In this document: piece by piece, positions 27,530 to 52,283 of the stretch
How positions within the stretch are numbered: position 1 is the first letter of the stretch
How the letters are laid out: each line of letters begins with the position of its first letter
Assembly (NCBI GenBank): GCA_964652125.1
Contig: CAZZAE010000002.1
Span: forward strand, 1-52,283
Direction of reading: 5' to 3'
Source of the DNA: an uncultured Candidatus Saccharibacteria bacterium
GTDB taxonomy: Bacteria; Patescibacteriota; Saccharimonadia; Saccharimonadales; JANWIN01
DNA: 52,283 bases
Position numbers and translations under genes: made by a program
The notes under the pieces: model-generated
Told to the model about the DNA's origin: nothing
Seen by the model: the letters and a program-made list of their open reading frames with translations, nothing else
Databases searched by the model: none

Positions 27530-27976
27530 ATGGTAGAAGTTATTCGACCGACTAAAAAACAGCGAGAGTTACTAACATATATAGAGCAGTTTATTACTGC
27601 GCGGGGTTATAGCCCGAGCTACCGTGAGATTATGAGCGGACTTAAATATACTTCTGTGGCAACTGTGGCTTTGCACGTTAATAGTCTTATTAAAAGAGGA
27701 CATCTTGTTAAACGTGATCATTCGGCTCGTTCGCTGGAAGTGGTAAATAAAGTTAGCGATACTAAGCTAGCTACCAATCAAGTTTCCGAAGCCGAAGAAA
27801 AATGGCTGGTTACCAAGGTAGATTATTTTTTTGATAGAGCCGAAAAGAGTAGTCAATTACCGCAGTCCGAACTTGATGAGTTGTATGTCTTAATCGGGGC
27901 CTTAAAAGTATTAGGCCTAGAGGGTGCAGCCCAATCTTTTATGCCTCGTTTGAGCAGTCTTAAAAAGAAAGCCTGA
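27530..27976 (+). CDS. LexA-N-terminal-domain (winged helix) DNA-binding protein lacking an S24 peptidase domain
   Basis: KKQRELLTYIEQFITARGYSPSYREIMSGLKYTSVATVALHVNSLIKRGHLVKRDHSARSLEV matches the LexA DNA-binding domain pattern. The remaining roughly 75 aa are helical/acidic, with no Ser-Lys dyad motifs. Confidence 0.7.
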   Translation: MVEVIRPTKKQRELLTYIEQFITARGYSPSYREIMSGLKYTSVATVALHVNSLIKRGHLVKRDHSARSLEVVNKVSDTKLATNQVSEAEEKWLVTKVDYFFDRAEKSSQLPQSELDELYVLIGALKVLGLEGAAQSFMPRLSSLKKKA

Positions 27977-28040
27977 AGGTAAAATTACTACAGTCATATG
28001 GTAGTTGCTTATGCTACTCTTATATTGTTAACAATTTTTA

Positions 28041-28192
28041 AGTCTGGAAGTGCGGTTAGAATCCGCAGGCAGTGCCGCTACGGTGATGTCCGTTTTTAAC
28101 GGAACAAGTCCGATACAGCAGTTAAGACTCCCGAGCAGGAGCGATTGAAACCGATTTTCAAAACCCTTGCTCATAACATAGCGAGGGTTTTT
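28041..28192 (+). promoter_or_regulatory. Candidate cobalamin-class riboswitch (short aptamer) with terminator/SD-sequestering expression platform
   Basis: P1 AGUCU (28041-45) pairs with AGACU (28125-29). The core is GGAAGUGCGGUUAGAAUCCGCAGGCAGUGCCGCUACGGUGA. A B12-box-like AAGUCCGAUACAGCAG lies at 28106-21. An 11-bp hairpin at 28161-28190 is followed by a U run and buries the SD GAGGG (28183-87). Alternative pairing of 28133-39 with 28166-72 is possible. Confidence 0.5.
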
Positions 28193-28194
28193 AA

Positions 28195-29637
28195 ATGGCC
28201 GAGACAGCCGAATTACTACAATCAAATTACATTCCCATTGACGCTTTTCCCGAACTGGCACACGCCCGACTTGTTGGTCGCCGAGAAGCTTATGAAATAC
28301 TTGAAGCCAATCGTCAGAATCTAATTGATGGCAATTTCGAAGCGGTATCTATTCCTGTAGATGCTATAGGCACGGCTCGTAGAGTTGTCCAAGCAGAAAA
28401 TATTTACGGAAGAAATAGTTTGGTGCGACAGGAACGCTTCGGGGGTTTGGTGCTGGATTGTAATCGACTCTTTGCTGAGGCAGTACGAGTTAATACTTAT
28501 GAATATTTTCCGCCTCTTACCCTAACCTATGATGAAGAATCCGAGGAGTACCATTCACACGGTCTGGCGGTTATGGAAATGACCCAAGCGGGACTATCGC
28601 CGGTTGCCAAACCGGAGGAAGTCGATCGCCGAATTAATGAACGAGTTGAGGAGGTTACTTATAAAACTATTAAACGTCTGGGCAATATATTGCTCGCTCA
28701 GTCCGTAGAAACTCAACCAGTTAAGCTTAGAACGATTTCCCAATGTGCTGATTGGGCTATTGATGAATATAACAAAATGGAAAAAGACAAACCTCGAGTC
28801 GGTTTTGGGGGTTACGCACCGCAAACTAAAAAATTAATGATTCGCGACACTCTGATTGACCCAAAGTCTAATGATCGGGCCGAGGAACAGATGGGTTTAT
28901 CAGGTGTTTATATTACTCACGAAGTTATTTCAGAAGCTTTGAAGCGACAGGGACTGCGCCAGGAAATTGCAACCAAAACTGAACTTCAAGGAGCACAACT
29001 CAAAGTTGATGATGACATGCTCGACTTTGTCATGCTACTCGATAGTGTTGCTAGTGAACATAGTGGTCTCAATATTTACTTAGGTGAAGTTTTGCCAGCT
29101 GGCAAACAGAAAGATTATGAGCACGTGAGGGAAGAGGCGATAGAGCGTCAGCAGGCACTTAATGACTTGGCTTATGGCTTAGCCGAGTTTGTTATCGGGC
29201 TGGAAAGAGATGGGACTGATAGGTGGGCAGCAGTTGGGATAGTTGAAGCTGAGGTCAAGCGAGTACTCATAGACATGGCGGATCAGGACAATACTCTGGC
29301 ATACGACATGTTTGATTACCAAACTGAGCGAGGTTTGCAAGAGGTAGCTTATCTGCGCTCGATTGGTCAATTTGATGCTGCTCAACTTCGACTTGATCAG
29401 GTAGCTGAACAAGCTCCCTCACCGGGCTATTGCGGGGCTGGCAGTTGCGGACTAGAGGAAATAAGGCAAGGCAGTAAAGAGGCAAAAGCTTTGGAGGAAA
29501 TGGGATTAAATCCATCAAATAGTTTGATTGATAAAAAAAGGGTATGTCGAAAGTGCAATGCCAAGAAGGTTGCCTATGCTCTAAATGACAAGAAAAAAGC
29601 CTGCTTAGATTGCAAAGCTAGGGCAGACCTTCGATAA
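28195..29637 (+). CDS. Orphan cytosolic protein with C-terminal CxxC...CxxC zinc ribbon (function unknown)
   Basis: 480-aa uninterrupted ORF with no TM or signal peptide. Acidic helical body. Cys pair PGYCGAGSCG, then CRKC-x15-CLDC at the extreme C-terminus. SD GAGGG lies 7 nt upstream of the ATG. Confidence 0.7.
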   Translation: MAETAELLQSNYIPIDAFPELAHARLVGRREAYEILEANRQNLIDGNFEAVSIPVDAIGTARRVVQAENIYGRNSLVRQERFGGLVLDCNRLFAEAVRVNTYEYFPPLTLTYDEESEEYHSHGLAVMEMTQAGLSPVAKPEEVDRRINERVEEVTYKTIKRLGNILLAQSVETQPVKLRTISQCADWAIDEYNKMEKDKPRVGFGGYAPQTKKLMIRDTLIDPKSNDRAEEQMGLSGVYITHEVISEALKRQGLRQEIATKTELQGAQLKVDDDMLDFVMLLDSVASEHSGLNIYLGEVLPAGKQKDYEHVREEAIERQQALNDLAYGLAEFVIGLERDGTDRWAAVGIVEAEVKRVLIDMADQDNTLAYDMFDYQTERGLQEVAYLRSIGQFDAAQLRLDQVAEQAPSPGYCGAGSCGLEEIRQGSKEAKALEEMGLNPSNSLIDKKRVCRKCNAKKVAYALNDKKKACLDCKARADLR

Positions 29638-29646
29638 TACTACTCT

Positions 29647-30261
29647 ATGAAGCAACAGCGAATTGGAATTTTTAGTGGTGTTTTTGACCCAATCCATGCC
29701 GGTCATATCGGTTTTGCCCTGGCTGCGGCCGAAAGTGCCAAACTAGATGTAGTCTATTTTTTAATAGAATCAAGTCCGAGAAGAAAGATTGAAGTTACTC
29801 ATCCGGCTCACAGAATTGCCATGGCCAAGTTAGCGCTTGAGGCACACTCTAAACTCAAATTATTAGAACTTCCAGATAAACAATTATCTGTAGCCAAAAC
29901 ACTGCCCAGGCTAAACCAACATTTCTCTCGGGAGGAATTAGTATTCCTAGCTGGATCAGACATGCTTCACCATATGCCGTCGTGGCCGCTAATAGATCGT
30001 TTGTTGAGTCAAATGGAACTAGTAGTTGGGACAAAAGGTGACTCGAGTATTAACCAAATTAAGACACTGATTAAATCCTTACCAGGTTCGCCCAAAGCAT
30101 TATTTGTTATTAATAGCCCTAATCCAGATATTTCCTCAAAAAATATTAGGCAGCAATTACAAAAAGGAGTTTCAGTAGATGATCTACTTCCAAGTGTAGA
30201 TAGCTACATTAAAAAGCATTGGCTCTACGCTTCGCCCTCAGTGACCATTTCTTCTTCGTAG
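29647..30261 (+). CDS. nadD: Nicotinate-nucleotide adenylyltransferase
   Basis: 204 aa. IGIFSGVFDPIHAGHIGFA is the (H/T)xGH nucleotidyltransferase motif. A distal ISSKNIRQ matches the ISSTxxR-like motif. Confidence 0.85.
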   Translation: MKQQRIGIFSGVFDPIHAGHIGFALAAAESAKLDVVYFLIESSPRRKIEVTHPAHRIAMAKLALEAHSKLKLLELPDKQLSVAKTLPRLNQHFSREELVFLAGSDMLHHMPSWPLIDRLLSQMELVVGTKGDSSINQIKTLIKSLPGSPKALFVINSPNPDISSKNIRQQLQKGVSVDDLLPSVDSYIKKHWLYASPSVTISSS

Positions 30262-31934
30262 TGGCTATGTAAATATGCCAAGTGTTTTTCTCGGTATTGT
30301 TTGAATTCGCTTTTCTTAAGACCACTACGCTTTATTATTGAACTTATTTTTTCACTACCAATGTAATGTGGCATCATTACATAGCTGGCTCCCAGGCTAT
30401 ACAGTTCTTCAGCCTCGGCTACGTTATCAGCGTGGCAAATTATAACTGCACGGCTATTTTTCTTGGCCAGCAGGCGGACTAAAAAGACAGTCGAGTCAAA
30501 GTCGGTAATAGTAGAGACCACTAACTTGGGCTTTTCCAGTCCAATTTCCTCAAGCAACTCGATGTCGGTAATATCGCCGTAAAGGTACTCTATTTTTTGA
30601 TGCTCTAATATATCTATAACTTCAGGGTCATAGTCGACTACCACGTAACTGCGCTTTAGATTATCAAACAATTTTATAAATTCGGAGCCACCTTTGTGAT
30701 AGCCAAAAAGTACCAAATCAAACGTACGTCGTCGGTCTGGCCCTGCTGAGCGAACTTTACGGCGCTCAAACATAGCCAAGTCTACTTCAAATAGTTCATA
30801 GAGTTTATCGGCGTAGATAATCATATAGGCACTAACCGCAATAGAAATTAGGGCAATGATTGTAATCGTGGCGACCAAATCATTGGACACCAAACCTTGT
30901 TTGTTGCCCAATATTATAAAGACTAGTGAGAACTCACTCACTTGGGCCGTAGCAACTGCTGTTTTGAAACTGGTGTTTTTGGTGTAGCCCATAAATCCCA
31001 TGATGGCCAGTACCACCAGAGGCTTGATTACGATTACGACAAAGCTACCAATAACAATGGCTGGCAGAAGTATGCCAATATGTCCAAAATTTAGCTGTGA
31101 CCCAAGAGTTATAAAAAATACTATGATGAAAAAGTCTCTCAGTGGTCTGAGCCTGGCACTTATTTCTCTGGTAAAAGGTAAGCTCGCTAAAGCAACACCG
31201 GAAAGTAGGGCTCCCATTTCCAATGAAAAACCGGCTCGCTCAAACAAAGCAGCAAATCCAAATCCCCAACCTATTGCAAATAAGAACAATAATTCCTGGC
31301 TGCCAGCAATAAATTTATGTACTCTTGGCAATATCACCATGCCGACAAAAAACATCGGTATAGTGATAGCTGAACCTTTGAGAACTAATAAGCCAAGTTC
31401 ATTAAGCGTAAAGCCATGCTCAGAGGCCCGGGCCGTAACAAACAACAGTGCCGTAGCCGCTACCACGTCTTGAACCAGTAATATTCCAGTTACAACTTTG
31501 CCGTATAGACGAGTTTGTTCTTTTTTATCACTCAGCAGCTTTAAGATAATAATTGTGCTGCTAAAAGCTAGAGCTACGCCAAAAAATAGCGAGGCTGTTG
31601 GGCTATAGCCCAATGTTAAGCCCCCACCGTAACCAATAGCTACACTCAAGACAACTTGTAAAAAACCAGTAATAGCGGCTACCTTGCCTACCTCTTTTAT
31701 AACTTTAGGATTTAAGCCCAGGCCAATAATGAAAAGTAGCAGAGCGATACCAATACTTGAAAAGGCATCGATAGTCTGGGGGGATTTAATCAAGTGCAGA
31801 ACCGATGGTCCAACAATGATACCGGTAATAATATGGCCAATAATTAATGGTTGACGGATTAGTCGCATAATTATGGCCACCCCAGCACCCAGGGCAATAA
31901 TTAAACTCAATTCCGCAAAAATGCTTTCGTGCAT
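30225..31934 (-). CDS. Monovalent cation:proton antiporter-2 (Kef-type) with C-terminal TrkA-N/RCK domain
   Basis: 569 aa. About 12 TM helices of the Na+/H+ exchanger family, then the Rossmann-like FDLVLFGYHKGGSEF...VVVDYDPE. Confidence 0.85.
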   Translation of the reverse strand: MHESIFAELSLIIALGAGVAIIMRLIRQPLIIGHIITGIIVGPSVLHLIKSPQTIDAFSSIGIALLLFIIGLGLNPKVIKEVGKVAAITGFLQVVLSVAIGYGGGLTLGYSPTASLFFGVALAFSSTIIILKLLSDKKEQTRLYGKVVTGILLVQDVVAATALLFVTARASEHGFTLNELGLLVLKGSAITIPMFFVGMVILPRVHKFIAGSQELLFLFAIGWGFGFAALFERAGFSLEMGALLSGVALASLPFTREISARLRPLRDFFIIVFFITLGSQLNFGHIGILLPAIVIGSFVVIVIKPLVVLAIMGFMGYTKNTSFKTAVATAQVSEFSLVFIILGNKQGLVSNDLVATITIIALISIAVSAYMIIYADKLYELFEVDLAMFERRKVRSAGPDRRRTFDLVLFGYHKGGSEFIKLFDNLKRSYVVVDYDPEVIDILEHQKIEYLYGDITDIELLEEIGLEKPKLVVSTITDFDSTVFLVRLLAKKNSRAVIICHADNVAEAEELYSLGASYVMMPHYIGSEKISSIIKRSGLKKSEFKQYREKHLAYLHSHYEEEMVTEGEA

Positions 31935-52230: not shown

Positions 52231-52283
52231 TGGTGGGGGCGCCTGGATTTGAACCAGGGACCAATCGGTTATGAGCCGACTGC
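52231..52283 (-). tRNA. tRNA with CAT anticodon (elongator Met or Ile2-lysidine type), 3' two-thirds only; truncated by window end
   Basis: The reverse complement reads GCA-GTCGG-CTCATAA-CCGAT-TGGTC-CCTGG-TTCAAAT-CCAGG-CGCCCCC-A-CCA. This gives an anticodon stem-loop with CAT, a 5-nt variable loop, a T arm, the acceptor 3' strand, discriminator A and an encoded CCA. C72 implies a G1:C72 pair, so it is not an initiator. Confidence 0.85.

Follow-up and report, generated by a model that had tools for sequence, protein, structure and literature searches.

What occupies the 218 nt that separate a gene for a LexA DNA-binding domain (DBD) from a 480-amino-acid (480-aa) open reading frame (ORF) in a member of the Saccharimonadales, and what might it do for the gene that follows? 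Both genes lie in a stretch of 52,283 nt, here called the window, which covers positions 1 to 52,283 (forward strand) of contig CAZZAE010000002.1 in GenBank assembly GCA_964652125.1, from an uncultured Candidatus Saccharibacteria bacterium (GTDB JANWIN01). A preliminary description of this DNA, made from its letters and ORFs, had read the gap as a leader resembling a cobalamin riboswitch, with a hairpin that could terminate transcription and bury the Shine-Dalgarno (SD) sequence. Having compared the leader with those of orthologous loci, we consider it about 87% probable that positions ~28020-28192 form a cobalamin riboswitch with its own promoter, which turns off the 480-aa gene, and probably also the downstream gene nadD, upon binding of cobalamin.

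Taken by itself, the window copy falls short of formal membership. At curated Rfam thresholds, no cobalamin model matches anywhere in the 52 kb, and the sole match is a partial tRNA at the far end. In a permissive search of 27960-28260 (301 nt), the best match was RF01482 (AdoCbl, for adenosylcobalamin), with a full-length alignment over 28023-28175 (22.8 bits, E = 0.035) that matches UGGAAG, GGU.A.AAUCC, C.GU.CCGC.AC.GUGA, and AAGUC.G; the CRISPR-DR2, SodB thermometer, and PyrR205 matches returned by the same search (E = 0.6-4.1, far under threshold) were set aside as chance. Folding of the window sequence alone was also undecisive (z = -2.27 for the whole leader and -0.78 for the aptamer).

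The decisive signals come from the relatives. Searches for orthologous loci with the single 480-aa protein yielded none, whereas searches based on an alignment of 53 close homologues (A1) recovered 42 genome and 27 metagenome loci. Curated thresholds of the cobalamin clan CL00101 (RF00174, RF01482, and RF01689) are passed by 21 of the 56 orthologous loci scanned, always directly upstream of the orthologue. Eight of these, the compact orthologues L001, L010, L022, L024, L029, L030, L031, and L066, pass RF01689 (AdoCbl-II; 36.6-48.1 bits, threshold 36.5), and 13 pass RF00174 (Cobalamin; 31.5-38.6 bits, threshold 31.5). Clan membership at the gathering threshold is thus a property of orthologous copies and not of the window copy. 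Because the insert in helix P6 varies in length, compact members match RF01689 and extended ones RF00174; the low score of the window copy is explained by a hairpin inserted in loop L6 together with a weak helix P3.

To these curated models we added a lineage covariance model (R1), built from 17 compact leaders aligned with MAFFT (A2) and carrying as its structure the cobalamin helices plus a conserved 3' hairpin. Within the window, R1 matches at one place (28020-28142, 82 bits, E = 3e-19). Each of the 60 Saccharimonadales loci in which the 5' end of the gene is present likewise has one match (60/60), always directly upstream and on the same strand, and no further match occurs anywhere in 443 kb; the nine loci lacking a match all begin inside the gene. 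Full-length, uninterrupted copies score 64-107 bits, and the match in L065 is split in two by an insertion. On this comparison, the window copy can be taken as an unambiguous orthologue of copies that pass curated membership, and the identity put forward in the preliminary description is supported by the threshold-passing orthologues, by the covariation of the helices, and by conservation in every locus that could show it. Homology to the cobalamin clan and the helices themselves are observed; that cobalamin is the ligand appears probable by analogy with the clan.

The helices were evaluated in two alignments, with controls in which pairing partners were slid and with 500 shuffles. In A2, which had not been fitted to any structure, 92.7% of cells are paired, compared with 35-48% after sliding, and 10 of 21 pairs show compensatory changes. 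In the larger alignment A3 (57 distinct sequences), the figures are 94.3% versus 33-45%, with compensatory changes in 16 of 21 pairs and 162 cells. The observed covariation score was reached by none of the 500 shuffles in either alignment. By helix, P3 is 97% paired across the family (compensatory changes in 3/3 pairs), P4 is paired in 100% of cells (many compensatory changes, among CG, UA, AU, and GC, in three of four modelled pairs), and P13 is paired in 97.8% (4/4 pairs). P5 is 100% paired and includes a U-A to A-U compensatory change, with P5 and L5 together reading UGUGCCGCA in 52 sequences and AGUGCCGCU in four; P6 is 99.4% paired, and its middle pair covaries (GC in 39 sequences, UA in 15). 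The preliminary description had named two outcomes that would refute it. The first, no match above the gathering threshold of a cobalamin model, holds literally for the window copy; the second, a lack of conservation or covariation upstream of orthologues, is clearly contradicted, as both are present.

Laid out in class-II nomenclature (PMC6158498), the window aptamer (Table 1) has P1, formed where UUAAC (28028-32) pairs with GUUAA (28121-25) as read from the sequence, followed by the internal loop J1/3, whose role is also described in that work; AACAA at the P1/J1/3 boundary is conserved family-wide in A2. The sequence elements listed in the preliminary description are all where it placed them, within 1 nt, including GCAGUGCCGCUACGGUGA, which ends at 28086, and AAGUCCGAUACAGCAG at 28106-21. 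The core nucleotides (J3/4 GGAA, L4 G-U-G-n-A-A-n-U-C-C, L5 CC.C, and J6/3 AGUC.GA) align with the Rfam consensus and vary little or not at all among family members. Of the 57 distinct rows in the family alignment, for example, 56 have GGAA, and the remaining one is the split, partial L065 match. The L4 region of the window reads GGUUAGAAUCC, with U after GGU instead of the usual G. The "B12 box" region, made up of 28106-12 and 28113-28119, reads AAGUCCGAUACAGC; the commonest form, CCGAUACAGC, is found in 27 of 57 sequences. The insertion in L6 is 18 nt long (28088-28105) and holds a 6-bp hairpin (28089-28103), which is a short P6 extension.

One helix of the preliminary description is not supported as the conserved structure. 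The aptamer had been closed there by pairing AGUCU (28041-45) with AGACU (28125-29), but this pairing takes up bases of the P1 3' strand (28124-27) and of the covariation-supported P13 5' strand (28128-31), and orthologues with a changed P3 (ACC/GGU or GUC/GAC) cannot form an equivalent. What the orthologues pair is the strand next to GGAA with AGC directly after GAUAC, which is P3. The description of the leader as a compact cobalamin riboswitch is supported. The class-II core layout of PMC6158498 is present, but the class-II (RF01689) definition, with no P6 extension and a simple L6 hairpin loop that contacts L4, does not fit the window copy, whose L6 insertion breaks it; compact orthologues such as L001, L024, L029, and L066 do have the simple L6. 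The window aptamer is thus a class-II layout plus a small P6 extension of the class-I kind.

Downstream of the aptamer, the window carries the regulatory hairpin P13 and a second hairpin (28160-28192) that buries the SD sequence and has the G+C-rich stem-loop and following U-run of an intrinsic terminator, which it is predicted to be. This hairpin had been described earlier; it runs into five U and covers GAGGG as stated, but its stem has 12 bp, not 11. It includes five G-C pairs, and the first four U of the U5 run lie within the stem. A scan for consensus promoters and terminators flagged neither in this leader, and the hairpin was missed because part of its U-run is inside the stem. By a strict stem search, ~40 of the 56 distinct leaders have a hairpin and U-run that end shortly before the start codon, and five more have a terminator/SD hairpin with a bulge when read by eye. 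In most orthologues, GAGGG or CAGG lies within the 3' arm of the hairpin, and in most leaders, including that of the window, 4 to 7 U come immediately after a strong G+C-rich stem.

The alternative pairing is conserved as well. Across the family, L13 and the 3' strand of P13 can together base-pair with the 5' arm or the loop of the terminator. The resulting anti-terminator duplex has a mean energy of -11.3 kcal/mol versus -6.0 for shuffles, and in 29 of 39 leaders it ranks in the top 5% of shuffles, that is, it beats at least 95% of them (L021, L026, L038, L048, and L059 were left out because the stem search had mis-picked their hairpin). In the window the duplex reaches -11.6 kcal/mol versus -4.3 for shuffles, and none of 200 shuffles was as good. 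The mutually exclusive pairing of 28133-39 with 28166-72 in the preliminary description is thereby upheld, with the qualification that 28133-39, proposed there as an anti-terminator strand, is also part of the conserved P13/L13 hairpin. Energetics change as the RNA grows: the minimum-energy fold of the nascent RNA 28124-28179 is the anti-terminator (-12.7 kcal/mol versus -4.5 for P13 alone), and the full-length leader favors P13 plus terminator (-22.0 versus -14.2 kcal/mol). Such a reversal is characteristic of an OFF switch under kinetic control, and OFF is the direction of regulation that we infer, by analogy. The window terminator, SD burial, and anti-terminator are all among the strongest of the set.

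How ligand binding could reach the platform is suggested by L5 and L13. In cobalamin riboswitches, the kissing loop between L5 and L13 always holds at least one unpaired nucleotide, L13 has to be displayed in a stem-loop, and the bound cobalamin touches both loops (PMC5028336). Family-wide, L13 reads CG-x-GCA, and only x varies (A, AA, U, or C). The proposed kissing strand of L5, UGCCG (28073-77), can pair with CG and GCA of L13 when x, which is A in the window, is bulged. L5 is invariant, and L13 is invariant except at its third base, the one required to bulge. The kissing base pairs are thus a plausible assignment by analogy with the known switches. In the mechanism that we propose, without ligand L13 and the P13 3' strand (28133-39) would pair with the terminator 5' arm (28166-72) to form the anti-terminator, so that polymerase would read through, the SD sequence would be free, and the gene would be expressed. 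With ligand, cobalamin would stabilize the kissing contact of L5 (28073-77) with L13 and lock P13; the terminator 5' arm would then be free, the 12-bp hairpin 28160-91 could form, and transcription would end at 28188-92, with the SD GAGGG buried in any read-through mRNA.

The orthologous family shows how freely this architecture varies. The P6 insert (28084-28109 in the window) ranges from 0 to >300 nt, and many family members, the window copy included, fall under all Rfam thresholds. The platform takes three forms: P13 plus terminator, P13 as the SD site, and P13 within the first codons. In L044, P13 supplies the SD sequence with its own 3' strand, the ATG follows 4 nt later, and there is no second hairpin. 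In the most distant loci (L034, L035, L037, and L039), neither a P13 nor a terminator is found in the leader, and the order is aptamer, SD, AUG, and then P13 in codons 2-6; the coding-region P13 of L037 (2897-2915), for instance, reads AUG-UUAGC-CGAGCA-GCUAA. A possible trace of this arrangement is a small P13-like hairpin at the start codon of the window gene, of the general form GGC-CGnnnCA-GCC, which takes in the G of AUG. In 20 main-clade loci, including the window, the protein starts MAxxA and the first codons are AUG-GCC-Gnn-nnA-GCC; the codon for Ala2 is GCC in 18 of these 20 loci and that for Ala5 in 19, compared with 36% GCC among the other Ala codons of those genes, which points to constraint at synonymous sites. 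The start-codon hairpin may be a relic of an ancestral coding-region P13 or a second receptor for L5. If main-clade leaders have two L5 receptors (leader P13 and start-codon hairpin), one aptamer might control both termination and translation initiation. As a separate observation, the P6 extension of the L065 aptamer match (2475-2890) contains an 81-aa GIY-YIG ORF (2578-2823, + strand; PF01541, E = 2e-15), which suggests that a small mobile or selfish gene was inserted in the one insertion-tolerant loop of the aptamer.

Several points weigh against a working cobalamin OFF switch in the window. The window copy is under every Rfam gathering score (for RF01482, 22.8 bits versus 50). P1 is weakly supported in the modelled register, with 75% of cells paired across the family, and in the window (28026-32 with 28121-27) it contains one G/G mismatch, while P3 has only two standard pairs there (C-G and U-A), its third position being a U/C mismatch. 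Because L5 and L13 are invariant, the kissing pairs are beyond covariation testing, and the Rfam-type P5 leaves a loop of 3 nt, so that for a 5-bp kissing interaction P5 would have to give up its U-G closing pair. In ~5 leaders (L002, L008, L015, L042, and L052), the SD hairpin has no U-run, so the transcriptional part is not universal. Finally, the 480-aa gene has no known link to B12, and a motif and hydropathy check of its product found neither a DxHxxG motif nor a membrane or hydrophobic segment.

The weakness of P1 and P3, the subthreshold Rfam score, and an R1 score of 82 bits, in the lower half of the range for full-length, uninterrupted copies, could also be read as signs that the window copy is a decaying relic, homologous to working switches but no longer binding ligand or regulating. 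We regard such decay as very improbable, since GGAA, L4, P5/L5, P6, J6/3, and P13/L13, the positions that are invariant or nearly so in the family, are intact, the platform elements are among the strongest of the set, and much of the loss in Rfam score is due to the L6 hairpin, at a site that varies freely in functional-looking relatives. Still less can be said for chance resemblance, or for a protein-binding leader unrelated to B12. The unremarkable fold of the aptamer sequence alone and the subthreshold Rfam match of the window would allow either, but both are refuted by the comparative data, as far as computation can do so: 21 orthologous leaders pass curated cobalamin thresholds, the leader is conserved at 60 of 60 loci, and the cobalamin helices covary.

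More room is left for variants of the riboswitch reading that differ in mode or in ligand. The same riboswitch could act mainly or only on translation, with 28160-91 hiding the SD sequence (possibly helped by the start-codon hairpin), the U-run being incidental, and no premature termination. The placement of GAGGG within the hairpin 3' arm, the leaders whose SD hairpin has no U-run, L044 with its SD sequence in P13, the four distant loci with P13 right past the AUG, and the translational mode of env8, the best-studied class-II switch (PMC5028336), all speak for this. We nevertheless find it unlikely, if the most serious of the alternatives, because most leaders, that of the window included, have their 4 to 7 U directly past a strong G+C-rich stem, and because the anti-terminator is conserved and forms ahead of transcription of the 3' arm, as is typical of kinetic control at the transcriptional level; the two modes are moreover not mutually exclusive. 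A change of ligand is a weaker contender. The aptamer could belong to the clan by descent and yet bind, in place of AdoCbl, a different corrinoid or related compound (a particular cobamide, cobinamide, or an aquo or methyl form) or have changed its ligand altogether. Class-II members range from AdoCbl-selective to methylcobalamin-selective, as set by the J1/3-J6/3 contact (PMC6158498). The family has its own strongly conserved J1/3 (UUAACAA), and the regulated gene offers no clue. The ligand-contacting core (J3/4 GGAA, the L4 T-loop, and J6/3 AGUCCGA), however, matches the Rfam consensus, and to our knowledge no member of the cobalamin clan binds a non-corrinoid, which makes this improbable. 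A cobalamin switch acting on transcription, with SD burial in addition, is thus the reading that we retain.

Table 1. Positions of the leader elements and adjoining genes in the window
Feature	Positions	Strand	Remarks
LexA-DBD-only gene, 148 aa	27530-27976	+	PF01726
Candidate operator box ACTACAGTCATATGGTAGT, at -35 position	27987-28005	+	longer-spacer variant of ACTA[CT]A-NN-TAG[CT]G
Extended -10-like promoter box TGCTTATGCT	28006-28015	+	would put the transcription start near P1
Probable riboswitch leader, overall	~28020-28192	+	aptamer 28026-28127
P1 5' strand UGUUAAC	28026-28032	+	model alignment; includes conserved UUAAC
J1/3 internal loop AAUUUUUAAG	28033-28042	+	alignment A2
P3 5' strand UCU	28043-28045	+	partner AGC 28117-28119
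J3/4 GGAAG, conserved core junction	28046-28050	+	aligns with GGAA of Rfam cobalamin models
P4 UGCGG (28051-55) / CCGCA (28063-67), L4 UUAGAAU	28051-28067	+	covariation
P5 AGU/GCU (28071-73 with 28077-79), L5 GCC	28071-28079	+	covariation
P6 CGG (28081-83) / CCG (28110-12)	28081-28112	+	encloses L6 and inserted hairpin
J6/3 AUAC (28113-16) and P3 3' strand AGC (28117-19)	28113-28119	+	aligns with AAGUC.G of Rfam models
P1 3' strand GUUAAGA	28121-28127	+	model alignment and sequence reading
P13 regulatory hairpin, stem CUCC/GGAG (28128-31 with 28138-41), L13 CGAGCA (28132-37)	28128-28141	+	covariation
Anti-terminator 5' strand GAGCAGG	28133-28139	+	pairs with CUUGCUC 28166-28172
Terminator-like, SD-sequestering hairpin, 12 bp (28160-71 with 28180-91), 8-nt loop, U5 28188-92	28160-28192	+	-16.4 kcal/mol
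Shine-Dalgarno GAGGG	28183-28187	+	in terminator 3' arm; ends 7 nt before ATG
Gene for 480-aa orphan protein, putatively regulated	28195-29637	+	ATG at 28195
Small P13-like start-codon hairpin GGC-CGAGACA-GCC	28197-28209	+	predicted -3.2 kcal/mol
nadD (nicotinate-nucleotide adenylyltransferase)	29647-30261	+	TIGR00482, 112.6 bits versus cut-off 112.45

Upstream of the aptamer, the switch appears to have its own promoter and possibly an operator, judging from sequence motifs. A TGnTAnnnT-like box lies ~30 nt before GGAA in most leaders (read by eye, without statistics). Of the 56 distinct loci, 25 carry a palindromic box that reads ACTA[CT]A-NN-TAG[CT]G in its strict form; it precedes the aptamer by 32-64 nt, mostly 33-34 nt, and has no further occurrence on either strand of 393 kb. 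The LexA-DBD-only protein is a candidate binder of this box, and the 480-aa gene may thus be under both protein and riboswitch control. The 148-aa protein is without the S24 peptidase domain; across 39 loci it shows 54-83% identity, and it is much better conserved than the 480-aa protein encoded behind it.

On the other side, nadD in the window starts 9 nt past the stop codon of the 480-aa gene. In 45 loci it is found downstream of the orthologue, with a gap of at most 60 nt in 23 of 43, and in the window the two genes are probably co-transcribed. Part of the control of NAD synthesis may therefore run through the B12 switch, or else an internal promoter may precede nadD. The same order of genes recurs in many Saccharimonadales loci: Wzy, GtrA, the LexA-DBD gene, the riboswitch gene, nadD, and then a gene for a 569-aa membrane protein (30225-31934 in the window, on the strand opposite to the riboswitch gene). 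Positions 1-27500 of the window hold mostly cell-envelope and polysaccharide genes, including those for a Wzy-type O-antigen ligase, GtrA, a family-2 glycosyltransferase, a Wzt-type ABC ATPase, UDP-glucose dehydrogenase, and DUF7657/DUF7654. At the other end, the 3' part of a tRNA gene (52234-52283, - strand; RF00005, 36.7 bits) is cut by the window boundary. No B12-related genes were seen among the sampled larger ORFs of the window.

The 480-aa protein itself is an orphan. Its 53 close homologues all come from Saccharimonadales/Patescibacteria where a source is named, and an exhaustive profile search of 1.84 billion representatives returned 255 cluster representatives for the family; among the matches listed, most relatives measure 470-600 aa and the remainder are partial and shorter. 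The protein has no Pfam or NCBIfam family, and no Pfam domain is common to the members or found in the most distant relatives. A PDB sequence-profile search gave weak zinc-ribbon-like matches at the C-terminus only, and PADLOC gave no meaningful match. The AlphaFold2 model from the 53-sequence alignment is confident (predicted local distance difference test score, pLDDT, 89; predicted template modelling score, pTM, 0.82), and Foldseek found no neighbor for it in the PDB (best E = 0.45, TM <0.15) or in BFVD (best E = 0.05, TM ~0.1); on this model, the fold may be new. Seven Cys are conserved: C184 (in SEC-DW), C413 and C418 (in a YCGAGSCGL loop that is disordered in the model, with low confidence), and C451, C454, C470, and C473 (C-terminal zinc ribbon). 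The idea of a papain-like Cys-His enzyme was dropped, as there is no conserved His.

Cobalamin riboswitches are among the commonest riboswitches, and the RNA described here is itself ordinary; the interest lies in the orphan protein that it flags and in a natural series of platform variants. A lineage with very small, host-dependent genomes has kept a dedicated B12 sensor before one particular gene in each of the 60 relatives examined, which implies that B12 status is of consequence to these bacteria. In reconstructions of B12 regulons of the Rodionov/Gelfand type, uncharacterized genes under cobalamin switches have reportedly pointed to B12 transporters, salvage enzymes, or B12-independent isozymes; the gene here differs from those in that searches of Pfam, NCBIfam, the PDB, and BFVD detected no relative of its family. 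OFF-type B12 control elsewhere suggests, by analogy, a role for the 480-aa protein in B12 acquisition or processing, or as a B12-independent substitute. We give slightly less than even odds that this soluble, cysteine-rich protein, with its invariant C184, is an unrecognized B12-related protein with a new fold, which could either process or traffic cobalamin or stand in, independently of B12, for a B12-dependent enzyme. If so, the riboswitch would open a first way into vitamin B12 sensing and use in the Saccharimonadales, whose genomes are reduced and which depend on hosts, and in any case it is at present the only functional clue to a conserved and confidently folding protein. A search for literature on cobalamin riboswitches or B12 use in Saccharibacteria, the Candidate Phyla Radiation (CPR), or Patescibacteria found nothing relevant.

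Among known systems, the closest are the class-II switches (RF01689 AdoCbl-II, or "AdoCbl-variant", and env8HyCbl), whose nomenclature and mechanism we follow (PMC6158498; PMC5028336). The leader shares with them the compact four-way-junction core of P1, J1/3, P3, P4/L4, P5/L5, P6/L6, and J6/3, a P13 that follows the core, and, as proposed here, a regulatory kissing interaction of the P13 loop with L5 that is interrupted by an unpaired base. It differs in that the window copy has a 6-bp hairpin in L6 and misses the RF01689 threshold, and in that the J1/13 linker is essentially absent, P13 abutting P1. Further, L13 of env8 holds the ribosome-binding site, whereas L13 of the window does not; instead, a separate terminator/SD hairpin lies downstream, and L13 with the P13 3' strand also serves as its anti-terminator strand.

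With class I (RF00174 and RF01482, including E. coli btuB and the Thermoanaerobacter AdoCbl switch), the leader shares the core junction and the "B12 box" region. In class I, OFF switching by terminator formation, SD sequestration, or both is the usual behavior. Many members of the family are extended in P6 at the class-I position, 13 pass RF00174, and the best match of the window is to RF01482. In contrast to class I, the window extension is one short hairpin and not an elaborate peripheral domain, and scores are marginal (31.5-38.6 bits for the orthologues against a threshold of 31.5, and 22.8 against 50 for the window). With P6 inserts from 0 to >300 nt, the orthologous family straddles the class-I and class-II models. 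This variation explains why curated models miss copies such as that of the window, and a single set of orthologous leaders that spans this range of inserts and three platform forms provides material for studies of how riboswitch platforms evolve.

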